NCBI GenBank assembly: GCA_034439715.1
Contig: JAWXAY010000014.1
Coordinates: forward strand, 1-18,033
DNA: 18,033 bases
Direction of reading: 5' to 3'
From: Pseudomonadota bacterium
GTDB taxonomy: Bacteria > Bdellovibrionota > Bdellovibrionia > Bdellovibrionales > SG-bin7
Every line of letters begins with the position of its first letter. Position 1 is the stretch's first letter. Shown one piece after another: positions 1 to 9,000 of the stretch. Position numbers: made by a program.

Positions 1-3000
1 ATAAAACAATACATAGGCTGGATGTATGACAAAAAATATAGCTACTCCCATCTTGTAAATACCTCTCTGGGCCTAGAGCACTACACTCGCTACAAAGGAG
101 GAGTCGTTAAACTGACAAGGCCAAAAAAGCCAAGGAGACTTATCAAAGATGTTTTAACTGAGTCCGAAGTTTCACGGTTACTATTAGCCGCCAAAAATAT
201 TCGAACAAAAGCCATGATTTGTTTGCTGTCATATTCAGGCGCTCGAAACAATGAACTTTGCAATATTAAAGTTGAAGACGTTGATTTAGGAGGGAATCAA
301 TTAACAATTCGTGATGGAAAAAATCGCCAAGACGGGGTCATTAATATTTCTGCTGAATGTACCAAAGTCCTGATTGATTACTTACGGGATTATCCGAGAG
401 AAAAAGAAGAATTTTTATTTACGACTCTGGTCAGAAAAAAACAATTAACCACCGGTGATCTTCGAAAAACACTTCGGGTCATGGCAGTAAAAGCTAAAAT
501 TGGACGCAGGGTATTTCCACACTTGCTCCGCCACAGCTTAGCGACCAATCTATTGAACCGAGGGGCTAGTCTAATGATGATCCAACAACAACTTCGCCAC
601 CGGTTTATAGAATCGACAATGATTTATGTTGTTTCAAGGCCTATTCGAAATCGCTCAGAATATGACTTTCATAAACCAGCGTACATGTAAATTCTTGGGC
701 TTTCTACCTAGATCCGTGAAGCAAATGCCTCAAGTGATTGGGAGTAATATCGAGGCGACGCGATGCTTCGGTTTTGTTACCGCCAGATTCTTGTAACGCT
801 GCTTTTAAAAAATCGGTCTCTTCGCTCCTCTTCATCTCTCGAAACTTCGAAAACGTAAGACCCGATACGGACTCAACCTGATTGCCATAAAGCTTTAAAT
901 CCAGATCACTCGGGCCAATCATAGATTCATCAGAAATTACTAAATGCTGCTCTACCATTCCTTCAAGCTCACGAACATTGCCTGGCCATGCGTAGCGTTT
1001 GAATACATCAAGGGTTCTACGCTGAAAAAATTTATTTTTCCCACTCTTCTTATTATAGCGATCCGTAAAATGCGCCACTAAGGGCTCGATGTCATCAACG
1101 CGACTCCTGAGCGGAGGTATCTCAACATGGACAACGTTTATCCGATAAAACAAATCTTCGCGAAAGGTTCCATTTGCGATGAGGGTCGCTAAATTTCTGT
1201 GAGTCGCACAAATAATTCGGACGTTTATCTTTTGAGGATTTCTGGCGCCGACCGGAATTATTTCACGTTCCTGTAAAACTCTTAATAATTTTACTTGCAA
1301 CTCCATCGGCATATCACCGATTTCATCTAAAAAAATGGTTCCATGATTGGCAAACTCGAATTTGCCAACCTTGTCAGCGATGGCTCCAGTGAAAGAGCCC
1401 TTTTTGTGGCCAAATAGTTCGGACTCAAGTAGCTCTCTAGGGATGGCCGCGCAATTTATAGCGACGAAATTGCCCTTCGCTCTTGATGACAACTTATGAA
1501 GCGCTTTAGCAACCAATTCCTTACCCGTGCCAGACTCTCCGCAAATAAGCACTGAGGTATCTGAAGCTGCTGCAAATTTTTGAACCCTAGTTGCCAACTC
1601 TGCCGACGCTTGGGACTGCCCAACCATACCAACAGATTCAATTAATTTTCTATTTTCGGATTTTGACATTTCTGGTCGAATAGTGCGAAACGCTTCTTCA
1701 TAACGGTTACAGAATGAAGCCACAGTCGCGAGGAGTTCCGGCGGTGCCAAACTTTTGTCAACGAAGTCCAATGCTCCCGCCCGCATACTGTTTTTTAAGG
1801 CTTCGCGAGACAGATCACACGAATACATCGCGATTTGTTGATTTGGATTCGCCTGATGCGCCAGCGATGCCAAAGTGTCGCCCATCATTTCGGGCATCTG
1901 ATAATCAAAAAGAGCGAGCGCAAACTCTTCCTTTTTCAGAAGTTCAAGAGCCTCGCTCGGTGAGGAACACGTTTTAACTTCATAATTATTAGAATTCAGA
2001 AACGATTGTGTTGCCTTCAACATTTTTAGGTCATCATCGACAATCAATAGTTTATACAAGTTTCACCTCGCAAAATAGGAAACTGAATCGAAATATTTGT
2101 CCCCTTATTTAGTTCGCTCTTAAGTTCAATTTTGGCTAACCTTTTATCGCAAATGTACTTCACCACAGCCAAACCAAGACCAGTTCCAGTCCCCGGCTTT
2201 AGGGTGAACTCTGGATCGAAAACATTTGGCTGGGCCATTTTTGAAATACCTTTGCCGAAATCTTCAATCGAAAGTGTGCCAATATTATTTTCGGTGCTGA
2301 CTCGAACATTGATAACGCTGCCATTTGGCGAAGCATCGGAGGCGTTTTGAACCAAATTAGCAAGAATTCTTGAAATATCAGTCTTTGAAAACGGGCAACG
2401 AATGCTATCTGACTTCGAACTAAATCTGACTTTGATGCCCTTCGATGTAAGGGATTCGTTTTCCGACAATGCTTTTACCTCACTCTCGACCATACTAACC
2501 AATTCAGTATTTTCGGGCGCCGTTTTTTCATTTAAACTTTTGACCTGGGATGCCACACCCGTGACCCTCTTTAAGGAATCTCGAATATCTGTCAAAAGTT
2601 CATTTTGGTCGTTGGAGTGGAGACGTGTTTCAAGCGTCGCAAGATTCAATTGAAGCTGCGCTACGGGAGTCAATAAGTCGTGTGCAATGCCTCTTAGAAG
2701 CAAAAGTCTTGCCTTATCTGTTGCCGTTCGCTCAAAGTTTTCTATTTGTTGAGTTAAGCCATCCAGAGCTTCTTTGAGCGGAATTAATTCGTTGAAAGGT
2801 ACTTGATGCCTGGGGCCAGCATCTTTCGGATTCTCTCTGATACGAGCAGACCAATTTTTAATTTCTGAACCCAAGCTTATTGACGCTACTTTCGAGATTC
2901 TCAAAAAATAAATAATCAGTGCAAAATAGCCGATTGAAAAAATCAGAAAAACCGTAATTAGAAATGACCAATTCAATGAAATAGCTCTTGAAATATAGAG

Positions 3001-6000: not shown

Positions 6001-9000
6001 CCGGTGTCTTGATCGTCTGACTCTCCGCAGACAATTATTTCTCGATTATTTAAAACTGCGGAAATATCTGTGATGTACTTAGAGAAGCGAAAGCCAATGG
6101 GGCGTCGGCCAGTTTCAATGCGAATAGATTCGTAAGAAAATGGAAGGGCCGACTTTAAGTGCGACCGACCTGAATTAAATGTCTCTTCCTTTTGAATCGC
6201 CGCAATCATTCTACCCCCGCCAAAAAATTAAAGGCTCGTCGACCTCTATAATTCTTCTAAAGCAATTGAGAGGCCAAGACTGGATCAGTGGTGGAATCGG
6301 CAAGAGTTGTAGGTAGTTATGAAATTCCCATCTCAATTTTAAAATGCTTTATAGCACAGAAATCAGTGAAATCACGGTAATACCCACAGAGATTCTGTGG
6401 GTCAGAGATATAATTTTTCTAAAAAACAACAACAACCATTCGATTTTGTAAATGAATTCCACCTAGAGTCATTAACCACAGAGTTTCTGTGGCGGTGTGA
6501 AGATATTACCAAATTAGCATGTTTACGAGCGAACACTACTGCGTGGCCGTCTAAGGATTGTTTGACCCACACAATCTCTGTGCCCCCTCAGAAATTCTGT
6601 GGTTTCGCGTAAACACCAAATTCCTCACCTGAATTTCTGTTTTTCGAGCAAGTAATCCACAGAATCTCTGTGGGCAATCGTTTAATTCAAAAAACTAAAA
6701 AACACACCCATTCGTTACTGATCTCAATAAGCTAACTCACTTTTTAAAAAAAGTTGGCACACCTTGCAATTTAAATAGGTGTAGGAACAAAAAAGTTCCC
6801 ACCAAATAACAAGGGGGAGAGGCCATGCCCAAGAAAGCATATTTTACTGATTGCCCACGCTGTGGATTACGTTCATTTGAGCATTTGAGCGACTATGCTC
6901 ATTGCCCAAACTGTCTCTACTTCGAAGATTACTACGAAGACACTGAGACCTGTTACTCCGCAGCCAGAGCAATCGAAATTATTCACATGAGGCCCATTCG
7001 TAAAATTGAGACTGACAAAATTAAAAAAATCGCTTCTTGAGCAAAATTCAAATGGAGAATTTATGAAAGACCAAACACAAAACGACGAAATAGAAAAGTA
7101 CAGGAAAGAATCTCTCAATGCGTTTGTTAACGATAAACCCAAAAGCTTTGTTTTCAGAAAAATAAAATATTTTCTGACTCATTTTTTTAAAAAACACTCC
7201 GAATTAGATTTGGAAACTTACAACCTCTTAGAGAGTAAAAAAACAAGGCAGAGTCTACGAAGGAATTTTTTATGAGAGGGGTCGTAATATGAAAAACCAA
7301 TTTAATCCTCAGCTTCGACAACAACTGTCTTTAGATAATTATGAGGTACTTCATCAACACCTACTTCGGCTGAGCTGGCGACAGCAATTGGTGATTCAAT
7401 TGAGATTTTGGGAGAAATACTCAATTTTCCAAATCGCGCACACCATGGGCATTAGTTGGAGGGCTGCCGATGAACTCATTGAAATGGCAATCCTAAATCT
7501 AAAAGCAGGACTTACTGAGAATTCCACAAAAACTGCCGTACTTAAAGCGGCATAGAAAAAAGGATATTAGAAATGGATCAAAATGTAGAAACTCAAAAGC
7601 ACAATGACAAATTTTATCGTTTTCAGGTCTTCCAAGGAGAGCGAGATGCCTCTGGAAAAATGAAAAAAACCAAAAGCGTCGGCATGGCTTATCTGAAAGA
7701 CGGCCAATCCATGCTCACTCTGCGACTCTGGACGCTTGTGAGCGAGCGATTTTATTTAATTCTCAATAAAAATGATGCTTCTAAATATTTAGTGATGACC
7801 CGGGAACCTAATAAAAATCCCTTGGGCAAAAATAAATATTTTTGGAATATCGTTGGCAATGGCGTGATTGATACCACACAAGGTCTTGTCACTATTGAGT
7901 TTGATCTATTGGATAAGCCGATTTTCATGAGCACACATCCAGAGTCATCCGCGTACTCAGTTTCGCTGCCTAAACCAGAGGATGTAATTCCTGACGCCGC
8001 TTAGATCACTGTTTTGAAATTTTATAACTGCCAGACTACTTGAGTTTTTAATTCTTAAAAAATGGAACTTAAATGAAAAATAAAAATAGTTTTTTAGTTT
8101 TTGGTGTTTGTTTATCTTTAGCAATTTTGTTTCCTGACTTTGCCCACGCTGGGCTCGAAGGAAGTCTTGAGGGTCTCAAATATAAACTCACAGGAGTGAT
8201 TTTACCACTGCTCGCAGTGATGGGAATTGCTCTTTCAGCACTTTCGTTGTTCACCGGAAATCCAAATGCGAAACAACATATCGCCTATGCGATTCTGGGC
8301 TGCATATTCGGTTTTGGCGCACAAGCGATTGTTGATTTTATTGCACAAACTGTTCGCTAAGAAATGGAAGGAATTTGGAAAACCAGGGACTACTTACAAC
8401 GAAAGTGGCGCGTGCGCTTGAAATGAAGACGAAACTTTTTGGCTTTGAGTTGCCAGACCTGCTTATAATTTTCATGAATTTGGCAGTGACAAACCTAGTG
8501 TTCGGGACGACATCCTTTCGCTATCCGCTAGTATGGGGGACTACGCTGATTTTGGCGTCGTTCCTCTATTTTTCAAAACGCGGAAAGCCGGACAATTACT
8601 TGCAGCATTTAGGGGAAATCATAGCACAACCCTCTTACAAGGCTGCTGGTCGAGCTGATAAAAAATATCGAAAATTTAGAAAGGGGGGAAATTAATGAAC
8701 CCTAATGCAAATAAAAAAGATGCGGCACTTTGCCAGGAGCTTCCATTCTGGGATTTTTTTGCGGAGCCCTTCGGTCATGCCGTACTTATTGACGGCTCCT
8801 TAGTGTGTGGACTCAAAGTGTCTCTGATCGACATTGAGTGCTTTGGTGAAAGTGAAGTGAATCAACTAACCCAAGGAATGAGGGCCGCGCTTGACTCATT
8901 GACCGAAGGTACCACTTTACAATTTGTTTTAAGCGTAGGGTCTGATTTCTCTGATTTGATTAAAAAGCACAAGAATGCTCAGACTGATATGGCGCATCCA

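Follow-up and report, generated by a model that had tools for sequence, protein, structure and literature searches.

A five-gene YcaO sensing unit beside the transfer operon of a conjugative element in a Bdellovibrio-like bacterium

Five genes on a mobile DNA element of a Bdellovibrio-like bacterium form a sensing unit: they encode a YcaO enzyme, a small exported protein, a periplasmic binding protein (SBP), a histidine kinase (HK) and a sigma-54 activator (bEBP). What does such a unit do in a conjugative element? On balance, we lean towards the view that this cassette is a regulatory module of an integrative conjugative element. ORF and Pfam analysis of the window (the whole 18,033-nt stretch of DNA) located all five genes named by the first-pass annotation in a tightly packed operon (704-6209, minus strand) that diverges from a type IV secretion system (T4SS) operon on the plus strand:

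1..690, plus strand: tyrosine recombinase/integrase, truncated by the contig start (PF00589, E 1.4e-32)
704..2059, minus strand: bEBP (sigma-54 activator) with a receiver, an AAA+ domain with a GSFTGA loop and a Fis-type HTH (Pfam REC, Sigma54_activat (E 8.5e-71), AAA_lid_14, HTH_8)
2044..3423, minus strand: sensor HK (HisKA and HATPase_c)
3420..4889, minus strand: orphan periplasmic family-5 SBP (SBP_bac_5; PF00496, 54.1 bits, cut-off 32.4)
4886..5185, minus strand: small exported protein of 99 aa, candidate YcaO substrate (ORF and RBS; full ORF 4886-5227)
5202..6209, minus strand: mini-YcaO of 335 aa, without a partner gene (PF02624, 64.2 bits, cut-off 25.7)

Neighbouring cassette genes overlap or lie no more than 17 nt apart, and the five are therefore read as one operon: the HK gene shares 4 and 16 nt with the genes on either side, and the SBP start overlaps the stop of the small gene as ATGA. 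The GSFTGA loop is present in the translated bEBP, which scored 290.6 bits on the LuxO model, far below the cut-off of 800; the LuxO and LuxN models gave only weak matches in the window (NCBIfam/Pfam-type model search). Read by eye from the sequence, the HK has two hydrophobic segments around a periplasmic stretch of ~113 aa, which holds a conserved C-x6-C pair. The SBP has a signal-like N-terminus and weak NCBIfam matches to NikA (E 1.7e-7) and OppA, and the window contains no permease or ATPase genes for it. The second, much diverged copy claimed for contig C36 of the same genome proved real on comparison with the window, with identities of 42.5% (bEBP), 29% (HK), 34% (SBP) and 31% (YcaO) for the cassette and 49–72% for the T4SS proteins. 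The integrase DNA (1-688) is 92.3% identical to the start of C36, and similarity stops beyond it. The five genes also held up as one conserved unit, and in the literature searched we found no description of a five-gene YcaO sensing cassette.

The enzyme itself looks active, judging from its predicted fold and motifs. Its AlphaFold2 model (pLDDT 92.5) matched the YcaO structures 6peu, 6ci7, 4v1v and 6gos with a Foldseek probability of 1.00, and in an alignment of 37 mini-YcaOs neither of the ExxER motifs credited to it earlier (E77/E80/R81 and E115/E118/R119) varies. By sequence it can be matched to solved YcaOs over ~40 residues only, and the SagD-type model gave just 55.1 bits (cut-off 219). 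Azoline-forming YcaOs have partner proteins and a C-terminal PxPxP motif. In the 37-sequence alignment the mini-YcaO has no PxPxP end and instead a conserved ..N-x-K-P-H-I-V-S.

The small protein looks like its substrate, as far as sequence can tell. Its likely start, GTG at 5185, is preceded by AAGGAG and gives 99 aa: a signal-like N-terminus (..STAHA|DG), a folded domain of ~50 aa and a flexible tail ..NPSCFGSIMNEK. AlphaFold2 gave residues 30-80 a pLDDT of ~85 and the tail less than 63. The mature product would be a folded-domain protein of ~74 aa; after Sec export, a folded protein of this size does not leave the periplasm without some further means of release. Among the best 150 hits of a profile search, 77 were small proteins, taken as family representatives, and 75 of these looked signal-bearing. 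The conserved Pro-Ser-Cys/Ser tail described at first pass emerged as the conserved modifiable part: 64 of the 77 carry P-[ST]-[CS] in their last 28 residues (PSC 43, PTC 13, PSS 7, PTS 1), 12 of the other 13 have Cys or Thr at the motif place (FSC 5, PST 5, SSC, ESC), and the last, HST, also has Thr there if aligned likewise. Distant cassettes keep a C-terminal Cys tail as well. YcaO enzymes cyclise Cys, Ser and Thr.

It had been objected that a Sec signal is odd on the substrate of a cytoplasmic enzyme. This is not a contradiction: bufferins, MNIO-modified copper-binding peptides, have precursors of 60-70 residues with Sec signals, in which Cys is converted to a heterocycle in the cytoplasm before export to the periplasm as folded mini-proteins (PMC11626156).

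Cyclisation of the tail is not the only chemistry to be weighed. The mini-YcaO might instead convert a backbone amide to a thioamide, trim the tail behind the motif at the expense of ATP, or serve as a scaffold only. In structure it comes closest to the archaeal thioamide-forming YcaOs 6peu and 6ci7 (TM ~0.56), the solved structure 7u58 is, per its entry title, that of a YcaO with ATP-dependent peptidase activity, the 2-12 residues after the motif vary freely, and the enzyme has no partner protein. Against this, nearly all 77 representatives admit only Cys, Ser or Thr at the motif place, which is the rule for side-chain attack and not for thioamidation; TfuA was not found in the genome (95.7% complete); and the invariant ATP/Mg motifs in 37 sequences speak against a mere scaffold. 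We regard these alternatives as distinctly unlikely.

The gap between the two operons contains a promoter, palindromes and a promoter-like motif, and the transfer operon begins beyond it:

6261..6276, minus strand: cassette sigma-54 promoter TGGCCTCTCAATTGCT (GG-N10-GC), with the same site kept in the closest relatives L003, L004 and L005
6384-6400, 6476-6492, 6567-6583, 6586-6602 and 6657-6673, no strand assigned: five 17-bp palindromes CCACAGAnnnTCTGTGG, likely activator binding sites in a layout common to other elements
6755..6768, plus strand: promoter-like motif TGGCACACCTTGCA (GG-N8-GC), 70 nt before the first transfer-side gene
6825-7040, plus strand: zinc-ribbon protein (transfer leader)
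7006 or 7064 to 7275, plus strand: small ORF (transfer leader)
7289-7555, plus strand: sigma-70 region-4-like HTH protein (transfer leader)
7573-8004, plus strand: conserved 143-aa protein (transfer leader)
8073..17942, plus strand: T4SS/transfer genes, namely TrbC pilin, VirB4/TraC, TrbL, TraE, CagX, TrbI, coupling protein and MobC-like protein (Pfam and NCBIfam)

The -24/-12 promoter proposed for the gap is thus borne out, and a canonical sigma-54 site precedes YcaO in 22/26 order-A loci, against 0.046 expected per 350 nt. Sites with at most one mismatch to CACAGAnnnTCTGTG number six in the 3.26-Mb genome, five of them in this gap. The A/T-rich C36 repeat is, as had been cautioned, common (TTCAAAnnnTTTGAA; 60 sites genome-wide at no more than one mismatch, 4 in C36), yet its array has the same layout as that of the window. 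Arrays of 3-6 palindromes, each of the form 6-N3-6, occur at 16 loci, and in 10 of 13 loci the first palindrome and the -24 element are 103-109 nt apart. The arrays do differ between elements, as claimed, but they fall into four half-site classes and not one per element. These classes track the recognition helix of the activator (HLRHLL with CACAGA, HLQYLL with TTCAGA, NRL[HS]YF with TTCAAA), the helix of the window (..ITPNHLRHLL) pairing with CACAGA. Together, these comparisons make it well supported that the cassette would activate itself through its own sigma-54 promoter and activator sites.

The link to the transfer operon is likewise well supported from sequence comparison. The last palindrome ends 83 nt upstream of TGGCACACCTTGCA in the window and 79-83 nt before the corresponding motif in 11/13 loci, although the gaps range in total length from 378 to 583 nt; this conserved spacing is new support for control of conjugation by the cassette. 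The motif, the second of -24/-12-like type in the gap, is followed by a hairpin (GGAAC-A6-GTTCC, 6784-6799), and its class behaves like a promoter in this genome, which has only one rpoN. Its spacing is GG-N8-GC, or GG-N9-GC in some elements, whereas the accepted rule for sigma-54 promoters is GG-N10-GC. Where order-B loci carry T4SS genes, hardly any -24/-12-like site was found upstream of the transfer genes. The 143-aa leader protein is common to the four T4SS elements of the genome; the distant one, on C38, has a different kinase-activator module, and palindromes of its own precede a motif of this kind there.

The placement of the unit beside T4SS genes, noted at first pass, is far more frequent than chance allows. 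When the count is limited to cassettes flanked on both sides by 8 kb or more, two or more T4SS families lay within 10 kb of 19/23 activator-bearing but 0/13 activator-less cassettes, counts that are inflated by near-copies (L063, L066, L069, L070) since related elements are not independent. The link is present in both gene orders and several YcaO clades. The other 4/23 adjoin ChrB/SOD/ABC transporter genes, GNATs or an RHS protein. The fetched flanks of 50/56 cassettes without an adjacent activator hold no T4SS genes; with most cassettes lacking T4SS genes nearby, the unit is therefore best seen as a general sensor recruited by conjugative elements.

Might the unit simply be cargo, a bufferin-like protective or antibacterial peptide with its own regulator, sitting where cargo lands in such elements? 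A Sec-exported, Cys-bearing, enzyme-modified small protein does resemble bufferins (PMC11626156); one relative adjoins ChrB, SOD-like and ABC-transporter genes; and the third related T4SS element of this genome, on C7, works without a cassette. However, the small protein has one conserved Cys/Ser only, the cassette has no immunity, export or metal-handling gene, the spacing between last site and motif is conserved in 11/13 loci, and the T4SS link is confined to activator-bearing cassettes. Whether the layout is divergent or same-direction, moreover, the cassette is found at the transfer operon's 5′ end. We consider cargo very improbable.

For a regulatory module, we propose the following course. 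At the expense of ATP, the cytoplasmic mini-YcaO would act on the small protein at its C-terminal tail, where the motif P-[ST]-[C/S/T]-hydrophobic would most likely have its Cys/Ser/Thr turned into an azoline ring, and the Sec pathway, given the signal peptide, would carry the protein to the periplasm. There the orphan SBP, made in step with it through translational coupling, would read the tail and signal its state to the periplasmic domain of the HK. From their domain make-up, the HK would phosphorylate the activator, which would bind the palindromes and fire the cassette promoter, a positive feedback for which the comparisons give good support. A further probable target of the activator is the opposed transfer-leader promoter, where the spacing is conserved and the promoter odd. 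The tail chemistry, the binding of the small protein by the SBP and any cell-to-cell signalling are what we infer here.

Alternatively, the SBP and HK could respond to something from outside, be it a peptide derived from prey, a metal or a metal-chelate. The small protein would then not be the ligand but would have an accessory role in the periplasm, such as that of a co-receptor, competitor or chaperone. Family-5 SBPs bind oligopeptides, nickel and metal chelates, in line with the weak matches found here; the HK has a periplasmic domain of its own with the C-x6-C pair; and most cassettes are chromosomal, activator-less and general-sensor-like. Yet the small gene always directly precedes the SBP gene, in both gene orders, no other short motif of the unit is as well conserved as its tail, and a dedicated YcaO accompanies the unit in 81/81 loci with readable gene order. 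An outside cue is, in our judgement, unlikely.

We give about the same low credence to a pheromone, that is, to the modified protein or a piece of it leaving the cell as an element-specific signal by which cells with the same element are counted or recognised before transfer. The two cassettes of this genome differ at every level (tails NPSCFGSIMNEK and NPSCGSAE, half-sites CACAGA and TTCAAA, the SBP and HK identities given above), as if their channels were kept apart; 14 of the 81 genomes with a match have two or three; and positive feedback is typical of autoinducer circuits. But the cassette encodes neither an exporter nor a protease nor any outer-membrane route, the mature product consists of a folded domain, and translational coupling of the small gene to the SBP gene would suit two fixed partners more than it would a signal that diffuses. 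Both elements have almost the same core tail motif, so specificity would need the variable residues after it.

The regulatory module proposed here resembles several known systems in part. Bufferins use MNIO plus DUF2063 where the cassette has a YcaO, contain several Cys residues and act in copper buffering, unlike the small protein, and the part of PMC11626156 available here describes no accompanying SBP, kinase or activator genes. With the azoline- and thioamide-forming YcaOs (LynD/TruD, McbD and archaeal enzymes; 4v1t, 4bs9, 6gos, 6peu, 6ci7) the mini-YcaO shares the fold, the ATP/Mg-binding ExxER motifs and a candidate substrate position that takes Cys, Ser or Thr; it differs in having just 335 residues, no E1-like, Ocin-ThiF or TfuA partner, no dehydrogenase and no C-terminal PxPxP, and its candidate substrate is a signal-bearing folded protein. 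The gap recalls NtrB/NtrC at glnAp2, with 17-bp palindromes (7-N3-7) ~110-140 bp upstream of a -24/-12 promoter and a closely spaced site pair within the array, but here one array lies between two diverging promoters, one with a spacer two bases short.

Vibrio LuxP-LuxQ-LuxO likewise runs from a transporter-less periplasmic binding protein through a membrane kinase to an NtrC-family sigma-54 activator. Its ligand, AI-2, is a small molecule made by LuxS, whereas the candidate ligand here is an enzyme-modified protein encoded in the same operon; the cassette has no LuxU-type relay, and its probable target is a conjugation operon. Staphylococcal agr (AgrD/AgrB/AgrC/AgrA) also unites a ribosomal precursor, an enzyme that modifies the C-terminal part of this precursor at a Cys, a kinase and a response regulator in one autoactivated operon. 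The enzyme here is, however, a cytoplasmic ATP-dependent YcaO and not the membrane peptidase AgrB (a Pfam/NCBIfam domain search of the window found no AgrB-like gene), the product is a Sec-exported protein of ~74 aa and not a thiolactone of 7-9 residues, and a binding protein, a sigma-54 output and a Gram-negative host are added. Finally, in Enterococcus pCF10 (PrgZ) and ICEBs1 (RapI-PhrI) a mobile element similarly encodes the peptide sensing that decides transfer, and PrgZ is an OppA-type (family-5) binding protein, as is the SBP here. In those systems an imported peptide, either unmodified and chromosomally encoded or a secreted Phr peptide, acts on a cytoplasmic regulator; in this cassette, which has no permease, the signal would run through the kinase to the sigma-54 activator.

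Gene and domain calls in the window bear out the first-pass annotation's claim of a five-gene operon (the cassette) lying back to back with type IV secretion system (T4SS) genes. The features are as follows.

1-690: tyrosine-recombinase gene, interrupted by the contig start
704-2059, minus strand: sigma-54 activator with receiver, AAA+ and HTH_8 domains
2044-3423, minus strand: histidine kinase
3420-4889, minus strand: family-5 solute-binding protein
4886-5185, minus strand: small protein gene, 99 residues
5202-6209, minus strand: YcaO protein, 335 aa
6261-6276, minus strand: cassette sigma-54 promoter TGGCCTCTCAATTGCT, GG-N10-GC, about 51 nt before the YcaO start
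6755-6768, plus strand: promoter-like motif TGGCACACCTTGCA, GG-N8-GC, 70 nt before the zinc-ribbon gene
from 6825, plus strand: zinc-ribbon gene, the first of four small leader genes on the transfer side, followed in order by genes for a small ORF, a sigma-70 region-4-like HTH protein and a conserved 143-aa protein
downstream of the leader genes, plus strand: T4SS set of TrbC pilin, VirB4/TraC, TrbL, TraE, CagX, TrbI, coupling protein and MobC-like protein

The five cassette genes overlap or are spaced by at most 17 nt, and the binding protein has no accompanying permease or ATPase gene in the window. Integrase, T4SS with VirB4 and coupling protein, hallmarks of an ICE, are found there. The MobC-like protein is the only mobilisation gene product found in the window, whose contig ends at 18033; no relaxase family was found among the ORFs scanned beyond 19 kb on C36, the contig of the same genome that carries a second copy of the cassette. 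The 143-aa protein (7573-8004, plus strand), encoded directly 5′ of the pilin gene, has kin in each of the genome's four T4SS elements (30-64% identity). It matches no Pfam family, its closest Atlas clusters are unnamed Bdellovibrionota proteins, and DUF736 is a weak lead (0.78).

To relate cassette and T4SS, we surveyed the flanks of 97 mini-YcaO genes, reaching up to 10 kb to either side; 94 of the genes come from 390 genomes of the class and three from a contig scan. Gene order was readable in 81 of the 97 loci, the other 16 being mostly cut by contig ends: 38 loci have order A, that of the window's clade (YcaO, small protein, binding protein, kinase, activator), and 43 have order B, that of more distant cassettes (activator, where present, then small protein, binding protein, YcaO, kinase). 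T4SS linkage, defined as at least two T4SS protein families within 10 kb, was tallied over the 36 loci with at least 8 kb on both sides. Nineteen of 23 cassettes with an adjacent activator were linked, compared with none of 13 without one (Fisher's P = 1e-6, a value computed over non-independent relatives with near-copies counted). The four activator-bearing exceptions have other genes as neighbours or fall just short of a T4SS. Where T4SS genes occur without an activator (six cases), the locus is cut on the activator's side every time. In a quick tree of 89 YcaOs, linked cassettes are spread over the order-A clade and several clades of order B; the cassette always stands at the 5′ end of the transfer operon, in divergent and same-direction layouts alike. 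Two cassette contigs are recorded outside the Bdellovibrio group, L015 as a Lysobacteraceae MAG and L005 as a Streptomyces griseus MAG, which could reflect transfer by the element or mis-binning. In L005, a close relative of the window, ChrB_C, SOD-like, beta-propeller and ABC-transporter genes directly upstream replace the T4SS genes (L005:2878-9575).

The same cassette had also been reported on the diverged element of C36, and its layout there is indeed that of the window. By global alignment the T4SS proteins of the two elements are 49-72% identical and the cassette proteins 27-44%; within the activator, identity is 52-65% in the AAA+ core and about 30% in the HTH region. The integrase DNA is 92.3% identical over 1-688, after which, at the end of the gene, similarity stops abruptly, and both contigs start at the same base inside the integrase gene. 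The common start and the abrupt end suggest that the assembly broke at a repeat common to both and that elements have exchanged modules. The T4SS element on contig C7, the third related one, is without a cassette; three CTGACA/TGTCAG palindromes precede TGGCACGCCATTGCT there (L002:3040-3300), bordered by arsenate-reductase-like and channel-like genes. The fourth, on C38, is distant. Its upstream module encodes a lipocalin-like protein, a 380-aa unknown, a kinase, a sigma-54 activator and a helicase (L140:4793-12343), so that the input differs from that of the cassette and the output logic is the same. GAGACT-type palindromes lie 67-145 nt before a GG-N9-GC motif in this element.

The enzyme of the cassette belongs to a large mini-YcaO family, uniform in length: a first search returned 200 proteins at E ≤ 0.001, with lengths mostly of 317-374 aa among the 120 matches listed. 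Members were found in 81 of the 390 genomes of the class, and the module is therefore no rarity. PF02624 scores 64.2 bits on the window YcaO (cut-off 25.7), covering only profile positions 111-245 of 325, and solved YcaOs match it by sequence over only about 40 residues. The AlphaFold2 model (pLDDT 92.5) returns YcaO structures only at a Foldseek probability of 1.00 (TM 0.40-0.57 versus 6peu, 6ci7, 4v1v, 6gos and 4q86), the top ones being archaeal thioamide-forming enzymes and LynD at TM of about 0.56. ExxER pairs are the acidic ATP/Mg-binding motifs of YcaO; both had been described as kept, and the residues concerned (E77, E80, R81, E115, E118 and R119) proved invariant in 37 aligned mini-YcaOs, in which an SNGWAAH stretch and the C-terminal N-x-K-P-H-I-V-S are also invariant or nearly so.

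Azoline-forming YcaOs have an E1-like or Ocin-ThiF partner, separate or fused, and a C-terminal PxPxP. The window cassette holds no gene for such a partner, in agreement with the earlier description of this YcaO as partner-less; its conserved C-terminus, ..EKPHIVS, is without PxPxP, and the SagD-type azoline model TIGR03604 scores 55.1 bits, below its cut-off of 219.25. No match to TfuA (PF07812) turned up in the genome (95.7% complete); some archaeal thioamide-forming YcaOs act without TfuA. A YcaO seemingly without need of a partner protein would be useful for enzymology.

The small gene probably starts at GTG 5185, with AAGGAG ahead of it, and its product runs from a signal-like N-terminus (..STAHA|DG) through a body to the tail ..NPSCFGSIMNEK. 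In the AlphaFold2 model, residues 30-80 form a small domain of helix and hairpin (pLDDT about 85) and the last 19 residues are unstructured. An Atlas look-up gave no usable match and a word-based homologue search with this protein only five proteins, so a full profile search was used instead: the profile, built from 23 family members, matched 1088 of 1.84 billion cluster representatives at E ≤ 0.001. Small proteins of 93-135 aa make up 77 of the best 150 of these 1088 matches, and 75 of the 77 look signal-bearing. P-[ST]-[CS] occurs within the last 28 residues in 64 of them (PSC 43, PTC 13, PSS 7, PTS 1), and in 55 of these the next residue is W, I, F, V, Y or L. The remaining 13 read FSC (5), PST (5), SSC or ESC (2) and HST (1), with Cys or Thr at the motif position in 12. 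Between motif and C-terminus lie 2-12 residues. In distant cassettes the tail is made up of small residues and retains a C-terminal Cys.

In the azoline chemistry of YcaOs, the side chain of Cys, Ser or Thr attacks the preceding carbonyl. Nearly all tails of the 77 representatives have Cys, Ser or Thr at the position in question. Such a restriction to these three residues fits azoline chemistry well and thioamidation less well. As in RiPPs, the putative precursor gene adjoins that of the putative modifying enzyme and encodes a conserved modifiable core; the tail is a likely substrate of the YcaO. The small gene also lies immediately 5′ of the binding-protein gene in both gene orders, and in the window its stop overlaps the binding-protein start as ATGA. 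This translational coupling suggests a fixed pair, and the binding protein is a plausible reader of the tail. Complex prediction for the binding protein (22-489) with the mature small protein (27-99) scored 0.00 in both runs, a value that gives no verdict either way.

The other 73 of the best 150 profile matches are very large proteins (578-4401 aa, with 3-24 matching stretches each) that match in the hairpin (residues ~60-88, ..VGLDENEKIIF..). Kinship with the small protein was rejected in favour of repeat likeness because only about 25 residues match, many times over. A 1337-aa RHS-repeat protein adjoins one relative cassette. Four order-A loci without an activator (L082, L085, L087 and L078) form a separate clade, in which the Cys motif of the small protein (GTGTCI, GGATCY/F) stands mid-protein, ahead of a helical region, and not at the C-terminus; in L015 the small gene encodes a 48-aa peptide ending ..GGGGGASCG.

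By Pfam, the window activator has the receiver, AAA+ sigma-54 interaction and HTH domains of the NtrC family, and its sigma-54 contact loop is intact (GSFTGA, of the GAFTGA type). Every equivalog model scores below its cut-off on this protein, which is therefore none of the named regulators. The two kinases, less than 30% identical overall, both keep a C-x6-C pair in the periplasmic stretch (AQCPSIGVPCF at residues ~105-116 in the window, SCNNPNGVCR in C36).

Sigma-54 promoters have GG and GC ten bases apart (GG-N10-GC). The cassette promoter follows this rule and is looser than consensus, yet it is kept in the closest relatives, and 22 of the 26 loci of order A have a site of this kind ahead of YcaO, where 0.046 would be expected per 350 nt; the -24/-12 promoter claimed earlier for the gap between the divergent operons, with a looser match in the window, thus holds up. 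Upstream of it lie five copies of CCACAGAnnnTCTGTGG, which has one further site in the genome at up to one mismatch. In sixteen loci, 6-N3-6 palindromes are arrayed in groups of 3-6, two of them usually lying 19 nt apart, and their half-sites are of four classes: CACAGA, TACAGA, TTCAGA/G and TTCAAA. The arrays had been called element-specific. The half-sites of the window and C36 do differ, but the classes are common to several loci and follow the second HTH helix of the activator: HLRHLL goes with CACAGA (window, L005), HLQYLL with TTCAGA (L009, L011, L013, L010, L014, L056) and NRL[HS]YF with TTCAAA (C36, L060-L070). Each half-site class is also a clade, and the pairing is therefore consistent with direct binding and no proof of it; the matched set of helices and half-sites would amount to an activator code. 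Among the 13 loci where both promoters can be placed, the whole gap measures 378-583 nt, the first palindrome is 103-109 nt away from the cassette -24 element in 10, and the last ends 79-83 nt before the transfer-side motif in 11. The best-supported conclusion is that the cassette is one sigma-54-dependent operon, self-activated via the palindromes and tied to the transfer operon.

Motifs of the TGGCACACCTTGCA type recur in C36 and in no fewer than nine further loci. They stand 43-74 nt ahead of the leader gene, with a conserved AAGGTGA-like stretch and then a hairpin downstream. Their spacing departs from the sigma-54 rule, being GG-N8-GC in the window and GG-N9-GC in C7, C38, L009, L011 and L061. 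In a census of TGGCAY-Nk-TTGCW in the window's genome, a ribosome-binding site and ORF followed within 150 nt at 10 of 18 sites with the short spacer (k=3), 20 of 32 with the canonical spacer (k=5) and 7 of 69 with any other k between 0 and 9, pooled. The excess at k=3 over the pooled spacers indicates that the short-spacer motif behaves like a real promoter class in this genome. Raw counts in 21 related genomes, each set against a reversed control, were 178 versus 57 for the short spacer, 142 versus 43 for the one-shorter spacer and 400 versus 45 for the canonical one; these counts fail to single out the short spacer, whereas position relative to genes does, in the window's genome only. Alongside canonical sigma-54 sites, TGGCAY-N3-TTGCA has the look of a second class of promoter, and would offer a test case for the strictness of the spacing rule.

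The genome encodes 15 sigma-54 activators and one rpoN. How near short-spacer sites lie to these 15 genes proved uninformative, and no second rpoN that might read the short spacer was found in the genome. Inspected by eye as a possible -35/-10 promoter, palindromic operator or tandem response-regulator box, the transfer-side motif revealed no consistent -10 or symmetry. Order-B loci have only weak -24/-12-like sites before T4SS genes, in L092 and L088. Further TGGCAY-N3-TTGCA sites of the genome lie at C6:196, C30:9897, C67:61136 (minus strand), C80:100185, C85:24818 and C100:2585, and many ORFs downstream of such sites have signal-like N-termini.

These observations allow us to propose, as a speculative and rather improbable reading, that each conjugative element of these predatory bacteria has a private self/non-self channel built on a YcaO azoline mark and a short-spacer transfer promoter. 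The minimal, partner-less YcaO would put an azoline mark on the tail of the Sec-exported mini-protein, and the dedicated binding protein, kinase and sigma-54 activator would read it. Co-resident or neighbouring elements might then distinguish self from non-self before commitment to transfer, the transfer operon being fired from -24/-12 promoters with a spacer two bases under the sigma-54 rule. The window and C36 cassettes differ at every level including the half-site, which would keep two circuits in one cell apart; this divergence of co-resident cassettes is the best argument for element-specific channels. Action of the product between cells is the least supported part: the cassette encodes no exporter and nothing to carry a folded 74-aa protein across the outer membrane.

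The cassette is undescribed in the literature searched, subscription-only papers lying outside the reach of that search. New here are the activator-dependent T4SS tally, the conserved promoter geometry, the helix/half-site pairing, the Cys/Ser/Thr rule over 77 cluster representatives and the short-spacer promoter class. The known ways for mobile elements to time transfer form a short list. If true, the private-channel proposal would add to it a new enzyme family and, as a new type of signal for transfer decisions, a folded mini-protein that is marked by YcaO and exported by Sec. The hosts would be predatory bacteria, in which gene exchange has received little study. The palindrome-promoter distances of these elements resemble those of the NtrC sites at glnAp2. 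Last, the first-pass annotation had objected that a Sec signal is unusual on the substrate of a cytoplasmic enzyme; the bufferins provide a precedent, as their cytoplasmically modified precursors carry a Sec signal, like the small protein of the window (PMC11626156).
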